This document shows positions 34,846 through 40,809 of a stretch of 64,000 bases of DNA, in pieces. The DNA is from an uncultured cyanobacterium (GTDB taxonomy: Bacteria > Cyanobacteriota > Cyanobacteriia > Cyanobacteriales > Nostocaceae), in NCBI GenBank assembly GCA_963706595.1, contig OY970166.1, positions 4,416,001 to 4,480,000 on the forward strand. Reading direction: 5' to 3'. The translations under genes and the position numbers were made by a program. Under the pieces are notes generated by a model that was given only the letters and a program-made list of their open reading frames with translations, had not been told where the DNA came from and ran no database searches. Position 1 is the stretch's first letter. Each line of letters starts with the position of its first letter.

Positions 34846-34973
34846 CTCACGCCACAGCCACAGCCACCACGCGAAAACCAACATTGTTGTTACGATTCGC
34901 GCGCGCGTTATGATTGCGATTGGCAGAACGGCAATTCCTAGCGTTGTTGATCCAACTACCGCCACGCAGCAGC
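34846..34973 (-). repeat. DGR template repeat (TR)
   Basis: 128-bp ungapped copy of 35163-35290. Reads LLRGGSWINNARNCRSANRNHNARANRNNNVGFRVVAVAVA* with 10 AAY codons; 13 of 14 mismatches are at TR adenines. Confidence 0.95.
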
Positions 34974-35162: not shown

Positions 35163-35290
35163 CTCACGCCACAGCCACAGCCACCACGCGAAAACCAACA
35201 GTGTTGTCACGAGTCGCGCGCGCGAGAGGATCGCGATTGGCAGAACGGCAAGCACTAGCGAGGAGGATCCAACTACCGCCACGCAGCAGC
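35163..35290 (-). repeat. DGR variable repeat (VR) at the 3' end of the target gene
   Basis: Encodes LLRGGSWILLASACRSANRDPLARATRDNTVGFRVVAVAVA*; 10 residues differ from the TR translation. Confidence 0.95.
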
Positions 35291-38235
35291 CGATAATCAT
35301 TATCATTCCCATTTAGCCAAGCACTTCCGTCTGTGGGCGCTGCCTCGTAATTTTCGTTATATATATCTTGGCACCATTCCCATATATTACCATGCATATC
35401 GTACAAACCGAAAGAGTTTGGCAAAAAATTTCCGACATCTGTTGTTTGTCTACGACTTTCACCTTTTGGGGCTGAGGCGTAGGGAAAGTTACCGTCGTAG
35501 TTAACTAAATCTGTGGTTATGGTTTCACCAAAAGAGAAGGGTGTGGTTGTTCCCGCACGACAAGCATATTCCCATTCAGCCTCGCTGGGTAGCCTGTATT
35601 TGCGTCCTGTACTTTGACTCAATTTTTCACAAAATTCTACAGCATCATCCCAAGTCACTTGTTCTACAGGTCGTTTATCACCTTTGAAATTAGCAGGATT
35701 TGTCCCCATAATTGCTTGATACTGCGCCTGGGTAACTGGATATTTCCCCATGAAGAAGGCAGGAACATTAACCAGATGCTGGGGACTTTCACTATCGAAT
35801 CTTTCTGCTTCCTCTGGTGGTGAACCCATCAAAAAAGAACCGCCAGAAATCGCCACCATTTGCAGAGTTACGCCATTACCTACATTTTCTACAAACTGGT
35901 CTGCTGTGCGGTTGTCTCTGGCAACAATATTTCCCTGTGCATTGACTGCTACGATTTTAAATTCAAAAAAAGTCTGTAAAAAAAGAGAATCATAATTAGG
36001 TATATTATAATTCCGACTAGGATTTTGGGTAATTTGATGTGTTACCACTGATGTCAGTAAACCCACACCTCCCCAACTAAGCCAAGTTAAAAATTTCCTG
36101 CGGCTGATTATCGGGGAAATAGAATTATTCGATTTAACAAAACTCGGCTGGTGAATTGATGGCTGAGTCACTATTCCCAACTTTCGTAATTTTTTCTGTC
36201 TTTGGAGTGAGCGACTAAAATCATCTGATACTTTCATGGTAAGTACAGATTGTTTTGTCATAAAGCCGAGAAAAAGATAATCCCGTAATAGACTATCTTG
36301 AGAAGCTGGTTTAGATAATAAAGAACGGATGGAATTAGCTAATTTGGTTAAAAAACTAGGAGCTTGTGTTGCTATTTCTAACTGTAATTTGCTGAACGCG
36401 GAACCTAACCCCCTAGCCCCCTTCCCTACCAGGGAAGGGGGAACATTCAAAGCCTCTCCCCTTGTAGGGTAGAGTTTTGGAGAGGGGTTTTCCTGATCCT
36501 GTGGAAAGTCAGAACCTTGAACAGCCGTATTTAATAAATCTTCTAGCGCATTACGAATAATCTGCTGTTGTTCTGGGGTGAGTGTTGTCATCAGGTAAAC
36601 ACGCAACCAGTCTGGCATATAACCAGAACGCAGCCACGGTAAACGAGCCAAATCAGTCAAGGAACACACTTCTAATAGAGATTTTCCTGACTCTGTGGTG
36701 AGAACGTTACCCAGATAAATAGTAATATTCCAATGCAATTCCGGAAAAACCGCACAAGCACTCAACCAATAAAAACTATCCTGTCCAAGATATTTCTCCA
36801 GCGACTCCAGCATGAGATTAATCTGCTCAGATGGGGGAGGATTCCGTTCTATCCAGAGATAAGGTTGTGTCCGTAATGAATCTGGTAGAGGTATTGGCGT
36901 TTTTTCCGCCAGAAAATAAGTTGCTACACCCTGGCGTAGTCTTTGACTTAGCACCTGTAAGCCTTTAAGTGTTGCGGGTAAAATAATAAACTGTTGTGCA
37001 AGTTCTAATTCCTGATATCTCCAGTTTTCTACAGGAGTGGGTGTTAGAAATGCCCGGTTTTCCCAGTCTGTCAATTGATTTACCCAAGGTTCTAATTCAC
37101 CACTAATAGAGCTAAAAAAGTTATCTGTATCGGAGATAATAATTAGACAATGCTGACTGTATTTTGATGTAATTTCTCTGAGTCTAAGTGGGAAGCTTCC
37201 TGGCTGATGGGGAAAACACATTCTTGGGTCATCATCGAAGAAATAGATAGTAGTAAATACGCCTTCATCTTGTAAGCGCTCAATTATTTCTTCTACAAAT
37301 TTAGCTTGATGATCTCGATAGCTGGTGCGGTTAACCAGAAATAGATACTCAGGGAGAATTTGATAAGTACGATAAACTGGAGTTAGCCATCCGCCTCGGC
37401 TGAGAGTTGCATTAATAGTTTTATTGACATCAAGTTCATGAGATGGAATCTGAATTCTATATCTTAAACTCTGGGCAATTTGGCGCAAGACAATATGAGA
37501 AACTAATTTATCTTCACAGCCAGCAATAGAAATTTTGTTTAATTCGGGTTGTTTTGTTGTACTATAACGTTGCAAAAACAGATTAGCACGCCATTGCGAT
37601 CTCAAAATGAGAAATGCAACTGAGATAGTTAGATAAAGTAGTAAAATTTGCCAATTTAAAGGTAAAGTTTCCGGAGGATCTGTTTTTGTAATTTCTCCTC
37701 TGGGAGGCACTTGTGGAAGTGGTCCCGTTGCTGGTGGGGGTAATACTGGGGTTGTTGTTTCTCCTGTTGGTCGTGGTTGTCTGAAAGACCTCTTCTCTAT
37801 GGGGGATGGGAATAAGATAATATATACAAAACATAGAAGAAAAATAGTAATTAAAGTTAGCAGTCTGAGTTGCTGCATCCCATAGGAGACAGAGGGTATT
37901 TTTTCTGGTTCGACTGGATGTGGTAGAGTTTCTAGGGTTGCTTTTTCTGTTAAGAAATTAGTTCGGCTAGATAACTGAACCCATCTGTCAAAACGTTGTG
38001 GAAATTCTTCCTGCTCAATGGGTGAACTACACAAAATTGGCCCTAACAAATTTCTCAGATTCTCTGGACTATCCAATGTTGTACCCCGATCAATCAACAT
38101 CAAGATTAAATTTTGGGCTGCAATATACTGAGATATGCCAATTTTGTAACCTGCTGCTCTTAGTTCATCGATGAACTCGATCAAATCATCAGGATTTAGC
38201 CAGTTTAGATTGTTTTTGTCTGTTCCTGTATCCAC
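35164..38235 (-). CDS. Membrane vWA-like / FGE-sulfatase (CLec-fold) protein; DGR target
   Basis: N-terminal helical region, two TMs, ELDV..TI.AT...PEYLFLVNR (vWA-like, degenerate MIDAS), third TM, then FGE domain (FLMGS, RLPSEAEWEYACRAGT, FGLYDMHGNIWEW, RGGSW, GFRV). Confidence 0.85.
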   Translation of the reverse strand: MDTGTDKNNLNWLNPDDLIEFIDELRAAGYKIGISQYIAAQNLILMLIDRGTTLDSPENLRNLLGPILCSSPIEQEEFPQRFDRWVQLSSRTNFLTEKATLETLPHPVEPEKIPSVSYGMQQLRLLTLITIFLLCFVYIILFPSPIEKRSFRQPRPTGETTTPVLPPPATGPLPQVPPRGEITKTDPPETLPLNWQILLLYLTISVAFLILRSQWRANLFLQRYSTTKQPELNKISIAGCEDKLVSHIVLRQIAQSLRYRIQIPSHELDVNKTINATLSRGGWLTPVYRTYQILPEYLFLVNRTSYRDHQAKFVEEIIERLQDEGVFTTIYFFDDDPRMCFPHQPGSFPLRLREITSKYSQHCLIIISDTDNFFSSISGELEPWVNQLTDWENRAFLTPTPVENWRYQELELAQQFIILPATLKGLQVLSQRLRQGVATYFLAEKTPIPLPDSLRTQPYLWIERNPPPSEQINLMLESLEKYLGQDSFYWLSACAVFPELHWNITIYLGNVLTTESGKSLLEVCSLTDLARLPWLRSGYMPDWLRVYLMTTLTPEQQQIIRNALEDLLNTAVQGSDFPQDQENPSPKLYPTRGEALNVPPSLVGKGARGLGSAFSKLQLEIATQAPSFLTKLANSIRSLLSKPASQDSLLRDYLFLGFMTKQSVLTMKVSDDFSRSLQRQKKLRKLGIVTQPSIHQPSFVKSNNSISPIISRRKFLTWLSWGGVGLLTSVVTHQITQNPSRNYNIPNYDSLFLQTFFEFKIVAVNAQGNIVARDNRTADQFVENVGNGVTLQMVAISGGSFLMGSPPEEAERFDSESPQHLVNVPAFFMGKYPVTQAQYQAIMGTNPANFKGDKRPVEQVTWDDAVEFCEKLSQSTGRKYRLPSEAEWEYACRAGTTTPFSFGETITTDLVNYDGNFPYASAPKGESRRQTTDVGNFLPNSFGLYDMHGNIWEWCQDIYNENYEAAPTDGSAWLNGNDNDYRLLRGGSWILLASACRSANRDPLARATRDNTVGFRVVAVAVA
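36397..36510. repeat. GC-rich palindromic dispersed repeat inserted in frame in the DGR target gene
   Basis: CCCCCTTCCCT-ACC-AGGGAAGGGGG hairpin plus CCTCTCCCCTTGTAGGGTAGAG; translates as NPSPKLYPTRGEALNVPPSLVGKGARGLG. Confidence 0.6.
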
Positions 38236-39209
38236 TGTTCTACAATTTTTTTAGCTTTTTCTTGATCATCAGCAGTTTTAATTAAGCTACTCAAAGTACC
38301 AAAAACTACTTCGGGTTGCAGTAAAGGATTTTCTGATGGACTATGAAACTTTCGTAAAATTATTAGCCAACCCAATAATTCAGCCGTTGCGGGTTTTTTC
38401 CTCAAACCACTTTGGGGGGAACGTAACCTGTAAAATAAGTTAAGGGCTGCTTGCAAAAATGGACTACTACTACCAGCATTAATATTGAAACGATTAGCGA
38501 CAATCTCAGCCAGTCGCTCAATTTTGGGAAAAGGAACGTTGTAATAAATGCAACGCCTGAGAAAAGCATCAGGTAAATCTTTTTCAGAATTGCTGGTAAT
38601 AATTATAATTGGTTGTAATTCTGGTTCGGCGGCAATTTTTTCATTTCCTAACTCTGGAATCCGAAAATACATTAACTCCAATTCGTTGAGTAAATCATTG
38701 GCGAAATCACGAGGTGCTTTATCAATTTCATCAATTAAAACTACTGAACGTGTTTTTTGAGAATGTCGAGTTTCTAATGACAATAAATCTTTAACTTCAT
38801 CTGGATTTTTAGTGTGTAAAATTGCTGTTCCTAAAGCTTGAAAAGTGATGTAATCTAAAAATTTAGTTGAATCAACCCCACTTTGCACATCTTGGAATCG
38901 CTTTAAGGCATCATAAGTATAGAATAAGTCACGAGCAACGCTAGTGGACTTAGTTTCAAACTTTAACGGCTGTTCCAGTCCAAGTTCCCAAGCCAGACTG
39001 TAAGCTAGTTGAGTTTTACCGGTTCCTGGTTCGCCGGTCACAAGTAGGGGTTGTCCTAATAACAGGGCTACATTACACGCATCTTTCAAGCCTGAATCTG
39101 CAATATAATTCTTTGGCTGGAGTAATTGAGAACGGGGAGAAGTTGGCACTTTTACTGGTAAATCCAATTGTTTGCGAGTTCCATCACCTGAGTAAAAGGG
39201 GTAATTCAT
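38205..39209 (-). CDS. MoxR-family AAA+ ATPase
   Basis: Walker A GEPGTGKT, Walker B VVLIDEIDKA, FANDLL, ITSNSEKDLPDAFLRRC. Confidence 0.92.
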   Translation of the reverse strand: MNYPFYSGDGTRKQLDLPVKVPTSPRSQLLQPKNYIADSGLKDACNVALLLGQPLLVTGEPGTGKTQLAYSLAWELGLEQPLKFETKSTSVARDLFYTYDALKRFQDVQSGVDSTKFLDYITFQALGTAILHTKNPDEVKDLLSLETRHSQKTRSVVLIDEIDKAPRDFANDLLNELELMYFRIPELGNEKIAAEPELQPIIIITSNSEKDLPDAFLRRCIYYNVPFPKIERLAEIVANRFNINAGSSSPFLQAALNLFYRLRSPQSGLRKKPATAELLGWLIILRKFHSPSENPLLQPEVVFGTLSSLIKTADDQEKAKKIVEQWIQEQTKTI

Positions 39210-40319
39210 GCTGATTCATCCTGTAGGAGGGGTTTGACTAATTCAACTAATTTTTCAGCTAAATCATGCATGGGAATCGTATCAGAGTATGTTTGTTCTT
39301 CCCAAGATTCAAACATCTCTCCAACTCTTTGAATTAATGGTTCAATCATGGCTTCTCCCACTAGCTTTCTAGTATCTTCACTACGTACCCAATTTTCCAC
39401 TTCGCCCTGATTTATTCCTTCTAATTCTGGCAGAACGATTACAGAGAGAGGTTGAAAATGATTAAAATTTGAGTTAGCTAATTTTTCGAGATACTGGCGA
39501 ACTCTTTTATTTATCTGCTGACATCGATATTGTTTAGAAAAAACGCGTGAAAAACTGAATATCCACTTTATCCAGAGTTTTTTGGCAGATTTGTTGCGTT
39601 TGTTTTTATATTTAATCGATATGTAAATAATTAATTTTTGACTGATTACTGTTTCATGTAAATGATTACAAAATTCCAAGAGTTTATTCAAAATTTCAAA
39701 TTCTTGTTTTTGCAAATCTTCTGTAAGTAAAGTGGTATAAAGTATAATTGGTTCTGGATAATTGTTTAAATAATCGGTGATTTTTTCCAAAGAGTAGAAA
39801 CTATTTCCCAAAACACCCTTTGTTAGACTTTTATATAACTCATTTCGTAGTTGATGCAAATTTTTTAATTTTGAAGGACATTCCAGTTGATATGTTGTCT
39901 TACTAATTGATTGGTGTGAAAGTATCTCTAGCCATTTAGGGAGAGCAAAGGTTTGTATGCGTTCTAAAAAGTTGTGATGACATTGGGATTCATCTCCATG
40001 AACAATGCAAACTAAATGACCAGGAGAATCTTGCTTGAGAAATTTCAGAAATGTTTCACCTAGTTGTGATTCCTGTTCTTTCCGGTTGGTTAAATAGGGT
40101 AGGAGTGGTGGAAGTTCTTTTTTAAATGGAGTCGGGGGTTTTTGGAAACTGCTTGACCCACTTTGATGAAAGGTAACATTTTTGGACGTGTTGGAAATTT
40201 AGAGCCTGTCCATTATCCAATTGACCAATACTCTGCCCAAAATTTTGACCTACTTCCTGCTGAATTTCATTCTTTGACTGGGGTGGTTGAGGTTCTCCCT
40301 GGTTTGGTTCTTGAGTCAT
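39206..40319 (-). pseudogene. Inactive-STAND (iSTAND)-like protein with N-terminal Q/N/G motif, split by a +1 frameshift
   Basis: The 65-aa ORF (40122-40319) and 217-aa ORF (39206-39859) join into one 370-aa ORF if one A is removed from the A5 run at 40179-40183. The restored segment reads LLPYLTNRKEQE...LVCIVHGDESQCHHNFLERI. The stop overlaps the MoxR start (ATGA). Confidence 0.7.
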
Positions 40320-40362
40320 TTTTTCGCAAACTTATGGCATCACTTCGTATTAGACTAATTGA

Positions 40363-40809
40363 CTAAAGTGTGACATTTCCATCTACACTACCGATGCTAC
40401 CAATGTTTTTAGCTTGGCTATTCTGCATCTGTCCAATCATTTGTCCTTCAACTGTGCCGGCTGTTTGCTGAATTTGAACGCCACCTTTATCAACTCCATC
40501 GTTATCTTGAAGAATTTTGGCAATGATATCTGCAAGTCCTTGATCTTTTTTAAAGAGTGTTTCTAACTCTTCTTGAAGTGCGGCTTTCCAAACTTCACTA
40601 TCTGGTTTTTCTGCTAACTTTGTGGCGGCGATGTTGGCTGCTGCTTCTGCTTCGACTGGAGGATATAATTTTTTCCAAATTGCGGTGGCTTTATCCCAAG
40701 TGTCTTGACCAAGCTTGGTCGCTGCTGCACTTAATGCCGGCTCTCCAACTTTTTTTAACAGAAAGGGCAGACATGGAGCTAGAAAAGTTGTCAAAATTGC
40801 TACATCCAT
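40363..40809 (-). CDS. Bell-like helical-domain protein with C-terminal putative amyloid-signalling motif
   Basis: Hydrophobic N-terminal helix (FLAPCLPFLLK), G.D.W.KA.AIW.KL pattern, ~105-aa helical domain, then tail IQQTAGTVEGQMIGQMQNSQAKNIGSIGSVDGNVTL. Confidence 0.65.
   Translation of the reverse strand: MDVAILTTFLAPCLPFLLKKVGEPALSAAATKLGQDTWDKATAIWKKLYPPVEAEAAANIAATKLAEKPDSEVWKAALQEELETLFKKDQGLADIIAKILQDNDGVDKGGVQIQQTAGTVEGQMIGQMQNSQAKNIGSIGSVDGNVTL

Follow-up and report, generated by a model that had tools for sequence, protein, structure and literature searches.

Can a short Q/N/G-rich motif shared by two adjacent genes serve in amyloid signalling when the protein on the receptor side is not an NLR? 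The question is raised by a locus on contig OY970166.1 (NCBI GenBank assembly GCA_963706595.1) of an uncultured cyanobacterium of the Nostocaceae. The 64,000 nucleotides between positions 4,416,001 and 4,480,000 were analysed; this whole stretch is called the window in what follows, and positions refer to it unless the genome is named. On the minus strand of the window four genes are arranged head to tail: a gene for a 148-aa protein (40363..40809), an iSTAND (inactive STAND) gene that would encode about 370 aa if read through its single interruption (39206..40319), a gene for a 334-aa MoxR-type AAA+ ATPase (38205..39209) and a gene for a 1023-aa membrane protein (35164..38235). A sequence-only reading had proposed that the 148-aa protein carries at its C-terminus a motif matching one at the N-terminus of the iSTAND protein, in the effector-receptor layout of amyloid signalling pairs. 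We consider it probable that the locus represents a Bell/BASS-type signalling pair, following the logic of HET-S/NWD2, which has been grafted onto an iSTAND-MoxR ternary conflict system. The pairing is kept across cyanobacteria and, in the iSTAND class, the two motifs co-vary, an indication that prion-like signalling may not be confined to the usual NLR receptors.

Matching motifs on adjacent genes

The last 48 aa of the 148-aa protein were compared with the first 46 aa encoded by the next open reading frame (ORF), which starts at 40319, 43 nt after the end of the first gene. The best ungapped segment pairs QIQQTAGTVEGQMIGQMQNSQAKN (from residue 112 of the 148-aa protein) with EIQQEVGQNFGQSIGQLDNGQALN (from residue 18 of the next ORF), with 13 identities in 24 positions and a BLOSUM62 score of 60; the 13 identical residues in 23 counted in the sequence-only reading are contained in this segment. 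When both sequences were shuffled with their composition preserved, the score was 24.5±4.5 with a maximum of 46, and none of 1000 shuffles reached 60 (z 7.8). The match is thus not an effect of composition. The effector-side motif comprises residues 112-148 (QIQQTAGTVEGQMIGQMQNSQAKNIGSIGSVDGNVTL; 40366..40476, minus strand) and is conserved in the alignment of the family, in which Q123, G126 and M128 are invariant and Q115, T116, G122, I125, Q127 and I139 are present in at least 90% of the members. Its counterpart in the N-terminal part of the iSTAND gene (EIQQEVGQNFGQSIGQLDNGQALNFQHVQ, with NVTF following after the frameshift; 40167..40268, minus strand) has invariant N17, Q21, G28, Q29, G32 and G37 in an alignment of 15 sequences. 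The additional NVT which both ends had been said to share is present only once the break is read through, but the stretch VQN(V/I)xF, to which it belongs, is also kept in iSTAND homologues with other and quite different N-terminal domains (P0039, P0040, P0047). It may therefore be an iSTAND linker rather than a part of the shared motif.

To see how far the arrangement extends, we turn to a scan of species-representative genomes with the small-protein alignment, which yielded 38 loci, all of them cyanobacterial where named; the consensus of the small-protein tail is QIQQTV..N.GQVIGQMQNS.AKNIGSIGSVQGDV.L. Twenty-one loci were pairable, i.e. downstream of a short gene of this family, at a distance of -1 to 171 nt, the same strand had a readable ORF. 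In all 21 a matching motif was found within the first ~20-60 residues encoded by the downstream ORF (22/22 if the window is counted), the best ungapped segments being 23-36 aa long with 9-21 identities (the weakest, L022, has 9/36). The sequence-only reading had named homologous pairs that lack matching motifs as a ground for refutation; none was met among these loci, and the layout with one motif at the effector C-terminus and the other at the receptor N-terminus is the same throughout. The pair counts leave out the other 17 loci: those in which the contig ends at, just after or inside the small gene (L007, L033, L034, L036, L037), in which no ORF follows (L005, L021), or in which another gene separates the pair (L027, and L038, whose small gene is also broken), as well as those with the small protein and its motif fused to CHAT (L015, L019, L026, L028, L029 and the broken L030 and L035) and L032, where the motif of an NB-ARC partner visibly matches and was left unscored. 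In L027 and L038 the matching motif is still visible further downstream.

The body of the partner protein is not constant. In the 21 loci it is iSTAND (8 loci), nSTAND1 with pentapeptide repeats (9), CHAT (3) or unknown (1). Pfam searches with the downstream proteins found iSTAND in 8/8 scanned (L001-4, 6, 8, 9, 11), nSTAND1 and pentapeptide repeats in eight scanned (L010, 16, 18, 20, 22, 23, 25, 31), CHAT in L012 and L013, NACHT in the second gene of L015, and NB-ARC in L032; a weak overlap of the partner's motif region with Pfam EAD10 (E 1e-5) was seen in L026 and L030. The small helical protein and its motif thus stay associated, and the receptor body is exchanged.

Two peculiarities of gene order were observed in these loci. 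The gene inserted between the small gene and the motif-bearing receptor gene in L027 and L038 encodes ~182 aa (…FQHQHPDYRLEL…GFESDEIAA…). In the CHAT fusions (L015, L019, L026, L028, L029; broken in L030 and L035) the helical domain, the motif and the caspase-like CHAT domain form one protein of ~375 aa, and the gene downstream encodes a motif-bearing NACHT protein in L015 and a 402-aa protein with weak EAD10 similarity in L026 and L030.

Co-variation of the two motifs across genomes, named as a test in the sequence-only reading, was found among the nine iSTAND pairs, the window included; the nSTAND1 class behaved differently (see below). The best ungapped scores of the cognate pairs in the iSTAND class sum to 684 as compared with 568.7±25.7 after permutation of the partners, and none of 20000 permutations reached 684. 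In a fixed register of 27 columns and with six lineages (the window, L003, L004, L006, L008 and L009) the cognate identities sum to 87, a value reached, among all 720 possible pairings, by the true pairing only. The signal comes from residues that are present on both sides of one pair and in neither consensus: MYGG occurs on both sides only in L003 (Y19), GNMSGG only in L006 (N17) and GGN.NNI only in L008 (N22, N24). Four pairs of the Nostoc/Anabaena type are too alike to discriminate, and their cognate ranks are 1-6. Because the permutation counts are inflated by the shared ancestry of the loci, we base the claim on the several independent matches peculiar to single lineages, rather than on these p-like values. 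Recent gene conversion as the source of the matching motifs was considered and rejected: of 125 residues identical on both sides, 62 are encoded by the same codon, and the nucleotide identity is 42-52 of 81. The likeness thus exists at the level of the protein and not of the DNA, which favours selection acting on the peptides.

The small protein, its tail and the interrupted iSTAND gene

The sequence-only reading had likened the layout of the pair to that of Bell/BASS-NLR pairs. According to the work in which it was described (10.1101/2020.01.06.895854), the Bell domain is a helical domain of ~100 aa, a five-helix bundle in the authors' models, the first helix of which is hydrophobic and position 2-3 of which is acidic. 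It was mostly found in proteins of 120-140 aa that end in a motif, and less often at the start of NLR-type proteins, in filamentous Cyanobacteria and in Actinobacteria. The 148-aa protein, identified by ORF call, AlphaFold2 model and homologues, starts with a hydrophobic helix (MDVAILTTFLAPCLPFLL) having D at position 2; the mean hydropathy of residues 1-19 is 1.7-1.8 over windows of 17 residues. In the AlphaFold2 model (34-row alignment; mean predicted local distance difference test score, pLDDT, 71) helices were predicted at residues 3-10, 14-17, 23-33, 35-54, 56-67, 72-88 and 90-101, with pLDDT values of 84-92 over most of residues 1-100 and below 50 for residues 104-148. Residues 1-103 are thus modelled as a helical bundle and residues 104-148, which include the motif, as a flexible, unstructured tail. 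An acidic residue occupies position 2 in 27 of the 34 family members (26 MD, 1 ME), these being the protein itself and 33 homologues found at E<=0.01 in a word-indexed collection.

A profile search against 1.84 billion representatives returned 1667 clusters at E<=0.001 and 753 at 1e-10. Among the best 150 matches 109 are not longer than 175 aa, and many of them match in the helical part only and have other tails. Three of these 109 short relatives (P0110, P0119, P0165) have clear IQIG or IQVG cores in the tail, the RHIM-like signature of BASS3, and seven have SGER(A/S)(V/I) tails (SGER..A..GG type), which resemble the sequences of cluster 'C09' in the training files of PMC8086366; judged from the file labels, C09 would be BASS9. 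The longer relatives carry the domain as an N-terminal fusion to NACHT-TPR (P0078), NB-ARC-TPR (P0194), nSTAND1 (P0197, P0136), NACHT-FGS (P0185), TIR or CHAT. The family thus has a helical domain of ~100 aa with a hydrophobic helix and an acid at position 2/3, and is mainly short and rarely NLR-fused, in good though indirect support of a Bell-like protein. As this support is indirect and the fold searches were uninformative (see below), we use the label Bell-like and not Bell. One relative, P0152 (1298 aa), is an NB-ARC-TPR protein that has its Bell-like domain near the C-terminus (residues 1079-1197), opposite to the usual N-terminal placement.

Other searches were of little help in naming the protein. 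Neither the 148-aa protein nor the 65-aa ORF at the start of the iSTAND gene matched a Pfam, NCBIfam or PADLOC family, and Pfam and NCBIfam contain no Bell profile. A profile search of the 148-aa protein against PDB sequences gave nothing below E 0.49. The ESM Atlas returned unnamed cyanobacterial clusters only, with a weak lead to HetE-N (14% of one cluster); Pfam HetE-N was dropped as a candidate, as only 2 of the 34 family members touch the model, with a best E of 0.096.

What kind of motif is carried by the tail? On the effector side, the composition of the motif (G 19.2, Q 14.8, V 11.2, N 10.8 and I 9.8%) is that of a segment of about 25 aa rich in Q/N/G/V/I and poor in K/P/L, as is characteristic of BASS motifs. 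These have been described as 25-37 aa long, similar in composition to the motif studied here and disordered as monomers, and as forming prions and fibrils (10.1101/2020.01.06.895854). The sequence-only reading had gone further and called the IGQ cores RHIM-like, recommending comparison with BASS and RHIM profiles. This was not supported: the signature of RHIM, PP and BASS3 is G-phi-Q-phi-G (10.1101/2020.01.06.895854), which is absent from the motif, the core of which is G-Q-phi-I-G-Q-M (phi = M/V), and a comparison of the tail with Pfam, RHIM model included, gave no match even at E values as high as 10. None of the strings IGQM, GQMSGG and GQMTGG was found in the supplementary training files of PMC8086366, one of which was available in part. 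In the same files the tail of A0A2W4ZHR4_9CYAN (…IQQSVTGDRNQVIGTMGGNAKAIGS), an outlier in cluster C01, is clearly of the type studied here. An archaeal NLR-side peptide (residues 5-29 of Methanothrix AEB69175), which has a similar GQ.VIGQ core, gave an aggregate-type infrared (FTIR) spectrum and bound Congo red (PMC8086366); this likeness may be taken as a lead and is no test of our motif. The published BASS screen covered neighbours of NACHT and NB-ARC genes only (10.1101/2020.01.06.895854), and the motif looks like a BASS-type family that was barely sampled by a screen so restricted. A joint structure prediction of the two motif segments (effector residues 100-148 and receptor residues 1-46), run without controls, had a score of 0.00 and speaks neither for nor against a complex.

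The receptor gene requires separate discussion, because it is not intact in the window. The break divides it into a 65-aa ORF (40319..40122) and an open frame of 325 codons (40183..39206). The latter is an iSTAND by Pfam (PF19995, E 1e-17, 65.4 bits vs a cut-off of 24), the only iSTAND match in the genome, and the MoxR-type ATPase gene is next to it, its start overlapping the iSTAND stop by 4 nt; the partner had therefore been correctly taken for the iSTAND of a MoxR system. The frame before the break ends ...ALNFQHVQ, and the other frame continues after it with NVTFHQSGSSS.... Comparison of the window DNA (GTCCAAAAATGTT) with that of locus L001 (GTCCAAAATATT) showed one extra A, the coding strand having a run of five A's in place of four (40179..40183, minus strand; a T run at 40179-40183 of the plus strand). 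The closest intact homologues (359-372 aa) read straight through this site, and the 325-codon stretch aligns with them over 98-100% of its length at 62-70% identity, which bears out the frameshift repair on which the sequence-only reading relied. Programmed frameshifting was rejected as an explanation, since the run has only five A's and the homologues encode the protein in one frame. The local iSTAND copy is either inactivated or mis-assembled at the homopolymer. No start codon occurs in the downstream frame before 39859; consequently, if the break is real, iSTAND would lose its conserved N-terminal third, and an untagged full iSTAND cannot be made.

Besides the window's own fragment, 20 homologues of the iSTAND stretch were found and 17 of them were inspected. 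Nine (P0035-37, P0042-45, P0048, P0049; 361-372 aa) carry the motif at residues ~10-50, as ...N(E/Q)I(Q/E)QE(V/I)G.N.GQ.IG(Q/K)(L/I)(D/N)NGQA(L/V)NFQN(V/A)Q..., directly followed by iSTAND; the last three listed have NV for NI. Four other homologues (P0040, P0041, P0046, P0047) have a different G/N-rich head (…NAQFGGGLINAESVNAGRIGGDIYNI…) at the same position, once behind a TIR domain, and P0052 has yet another Q/N/G-rich head. These heads may be further families of adaptor or amyloid-like motifs on iSTAND proteins.

Proposed mechanism and competing explanations

Each of the elements assembled at this locus has been described, and it is their combination that was not found in the literature searched. 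The published Bell/BASS-NLR pairs (10.1101/2020.01.06.895854) resemble the window pair in having a short helical effector (~120-150 aa) with a hydrophobic helix and an acid at position 2, a C-terminal Q/N/G/V/I motif of ~25-37 aa, an adjacent collinear gene that starts with the match, and a filamentous cyanobacterium as host; moreover, the partners of its relatives in other lineages include NACHT, NB-ARC and nSTAND1 proteins. Unlike in those pairs, the receptor in the window is not an NB-ARC/NACHT protein of the NLR type with TPR/WD repeats but an NTPase-dead iSTAND in a MoxR operon. A receptor other than an NLR is not without precedent. Agp, a non-NLR protein with an N-terminal motif, activates the Bell-related small effector Bab encoded next door, via the BASS11 motif, in phage infection, whereupon Bab relocates to the cell periphery and membrane alterations are seen (Ibarlosa et al. 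2024, 10.1101/2024.11.07.622273). Abortive infection was shown for that system; ours belongs to a four-gene cyanobacterial iSTAND-MoxR system and has a different motif.

The other half of the comparison is provided by the iSTAND–MoxR–vWA ternary systems, which consist, as here, of an iSTAND protein, an adjacent MoxR-type AAA+ ATPase and a large transmembrane protein with a variable C-terminal domain, FGE-sulfatase/C-type-lectin-fold (FGS) being the commonest such domain (~22% of the systems; PMC7159879). In the published accounts the iSTAND N-terminus docks an adaptor, of which a second copy is present on an adjacent effector (PMC7159879, PMC8195603). There the N-terminus is usually a folded adaptor such as an effector-associated domain (EAD), a TIR domain or a peptidase. 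In the window the adaptor is a short, predictedly disordered Q/N/G-rich, BASS-like motif, and the effector recruited through the matching motif would be a Bell-like helical protein. With the fungal HET-S/NWD2 and the mammalian RHIM proteins no sequence relationship was found. The similarity is one of logic, i.e. a receptor N-terminal motif that templates an effector C-terminal motif and a membrane-targeting helix, the role of which in the window is proposed by analogy. We found no paper linking amyloid signalling to iSTAND/MoxR systems, although cases could be contained in the bioRxiv supplementary tables of BASS pairs and BASS11. In the available text of PMC8195603 'amyloid' occurs in a reference title only, that of Ibarlosa et al. 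(10.1101/2024.11.07.622273) mentions neither iSTAND nor MoxR, and a review of 2026, in its accessible part, still places BASS on NLRs only (PMC13506858).

Taking these precedents together, the following sequence of events may be envisaged. The 148-aa protein would be a latent membrane-targeting executioner, in which the Bell-like bundle hides the N-terminal hydrophobic helix. A threat would be sensed by the FGS/lectin domain of the membrane protein, diversified by a diversity-generating retroelement (DGR), or by the iSTAND protein. The MoxR ATPase would then remodel the complex and the iSTAND subunits would cluster, so that their N-terminal motifs could fold into a beta-arch or amyloid nucleus. 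This nucleus would template the tail of the Bell-like protein, and the conversion would free its N-terminal helix, leading to membrane damage and to the death of the infected cell of the filament. Published proposals differ on the sensor: iSTAND has been suggested as sensor of the invader and MoxR as setter of the threshold (Kaur et al. 2020, PMC7159879; 2021, PMC8195603), and a DGR-diversified lectin-fold protein has been suggested as a sensor that signals via MoxR to the N-terminal module of the third component (Doré et al., PMC10907252). A bolder version, a prion-like death switch in which a MoxR chaperone acts on an NTPase-dead STAND scaffold, in place of a nucleotide-dependent NLR, with a DGR-hypermutated periplasmic lectin domain as input, is possible but in our opinion doubtful. 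If it were true, a chaperone would connect a programmable 'antigen receptor' with an amyloid fuse and a membrane executioner. Short amyloid motifs would then be 'effector-associated' adaptors of a general kind, exchangeable among the conflict systems of bacteria.

Several observations weigh against the proposal that a Bell/BASS-type pair has been joined to an iSTAND-MoxR system. Co-variation of the motifs holds for the iSTAND class only; in the nSTAND1 class there was no cognate excess (646 vs 637.6±10.4; 4340 of 20000 permutations reach 646). The model of the small protein gave nothing at E<=0.001 in a Foldseek search of the PDB, and in a VIA-wide fold search the best Z was 5.0, with no specific relative and no Babybell or HeLo/MLKL entry listed. 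The motif is BASS-like in sequence, and that it forms amyloid is something that we infer by analogy. As the receptor gene is frameshifted, the local system may be dead, and the operon is surrounded by housekeeping genes and not by a defence island. The vWA component, too, is not established: no vWA match was found by Pfam in the 1023-aa protein, whether the whole protein or sub-segments were searched, and the model of its alpha/beta domain (mean pLDDT 59) ties vWA-type folds (MDN1 MIDAS, Z 9.4; NorD vWA, Z 9.1) with TIR (Z 10.1) and, equally, receiver folds. NorD is the vWA partner in the NorQ/NorD MoxR pair, and the domain is possibly a degenerate vWA.

Could the matching motifs be explained without amyloid templating? 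That they resemble each other by chance or as low-complexity Q/N/G sequence is hardly credible; both segments are compositionally biased, but the shuffling result, the 21/21 loci and the co-variation all contradict it. The motif could also be a non-amyloid homotypic adaptor, a miniature EAD, in which beta-strands pair stoichiometrically, so that the small protein is brought to the iSTAND N-terminus, and no templated or prion-like polymerisation takes place. Such an adaptor would fit the EAD principle, in which copies are found on the N-terminus of the core protein and on the adjacent effector, adjacent copies being the closest (PMC7159879, PMC8195603); the position of the motif is taken in other iSTAND homologues by modules such as TIR, CHAT or trypsin, and there is the weak EAD10 overlap in L026 and L030. 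We regard it as unlikely, since in composition, in length (25-37 aa) and in being disordered as a monomer the motif agrees with what has been reported for BASS motifs, and the same helical family carries RHIM-like tails. Recognition of both motifs by a third factor, such as the MoxR ATPase, a protease or a modifying enzyme, and not by each other, would agree with the strong conservation of the core across classes and with the lack of cognate excess in the nSTAND1 class. This explanation appears very improbable to us: the motif is also found with partners that have no MoxR nearby (nSTAND1, CHAT, NACHT, NB-ARC), and matched lineage-specific substitutions within single genomes are not expected from it.

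Independently of the mechanism, the local copy could be a decaying remnant, in which the receptor is a pseudogene and the Bell-like gene an orphan. Here our judgement is almost evenly divided, inclining slightly to the negative. The insertion of one base splits the genome's only iSTAND gene, and the position of the first downstream start (see above) leaves no way to an untagged full protein. On the other hand, the damage is limited to a single homopolymer lesion and the other 325 codons form an open frame that can be aligned over its full extent with intact homologues, which would fit a very recent mutation or an assembly error. Intact operons are present in cultured strains, among them Anabaena subtropica FACHB-260 (L011).

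If signalling by a Bell/BASS-type pair is retained as the preferred explanation, the window locus and its eight intact relatives would join two subjects hitherto separate, the amyloid signalling of Bell/BASS–NLR pairs and the EAD logic of the MoxR ternary systems. Should the motif indeed template, bacterial amyloid signalling would not need an active STAND NTPase, and a chaperone ATPase, which may itself act downstream of a hypermutating receptor, could serve as its gate. This would be of interest for bacterial immunity and for functional amyloids alike, an interest tempered by the conjectural amyloid step and the broken receptor gene of the window.

The ATPase, the membrane protein and the variable region

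The order of the operon, Bell-like gene, iSTAND, MoxR and a large protein with a variable C-terminal domain, is kept in the related loci. A gene for an AAA/AAA_5 protein of 333-337 aa follows iSTAND in 7/7 scanned loci. The protein of the window was assigned by Pfam AAA and AAA_5 and also matches the NCBIfam MadB-family AAA ATPase (1.5e-21, below the curated cut-off). The gene after it encodes a protein of 950-1430 aa, the C-terminus of which is FGE-sulfatase in L011, as in the window, CHASE2 in L003 and WD40 in L006, L008 and L009; nothing was detected in L002, and L004 ends with the contig. In the 1023-aa protein of the window an N-terminal helical domain is followed by hydrophobic segments, the conserved alpha/beta domain, a further hydrophobic segment and, at residues 792-1018, the FGS domain (Pfam FGE-sulfatase, 2.6e-56).

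A putative DGR variable region (VR; 35164..35290, minus strand) lies at the 3' end of the sequence coding for the FGS domain and matches over 127 nt a template region (TR; 34847..34973, minus strand) ~190 nt downstream of the gene. Thirteen of the 14 mismatches between VR and TR can be read as lying on adenines of TR, the hallmark of a DGR template/variable pair, and the presence of such a pair at the end of the FGS gene lends some local support to the lectin-fold-sensor model. The window contains no reverse transcriptase gene. A match to the reverse transcriptase family (304-aa open frame) was found at 4,623,989-4,624,630 of the genome, ~173 kb away and beside an FGS paralogue.

Another gene resembling MoxR (32% identical) was found together with two neighbouring FGS paralogues at 4,505,270-4,510,536 of the genome, ~25 kb beyond the end of the window. 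It probably represents a further MoxR-FGS system, one without iSTAND. Finally, a stretch of ~40 aa (…YPTRGEALNVPPSLVGKGARGLGS…) at residues ~575-615 of the 1023-aa protein (~36390-36510) recurs in more than 20 other places of the genome with 43-85% identity, and looks like a short dispersed repeat inserted in frame.

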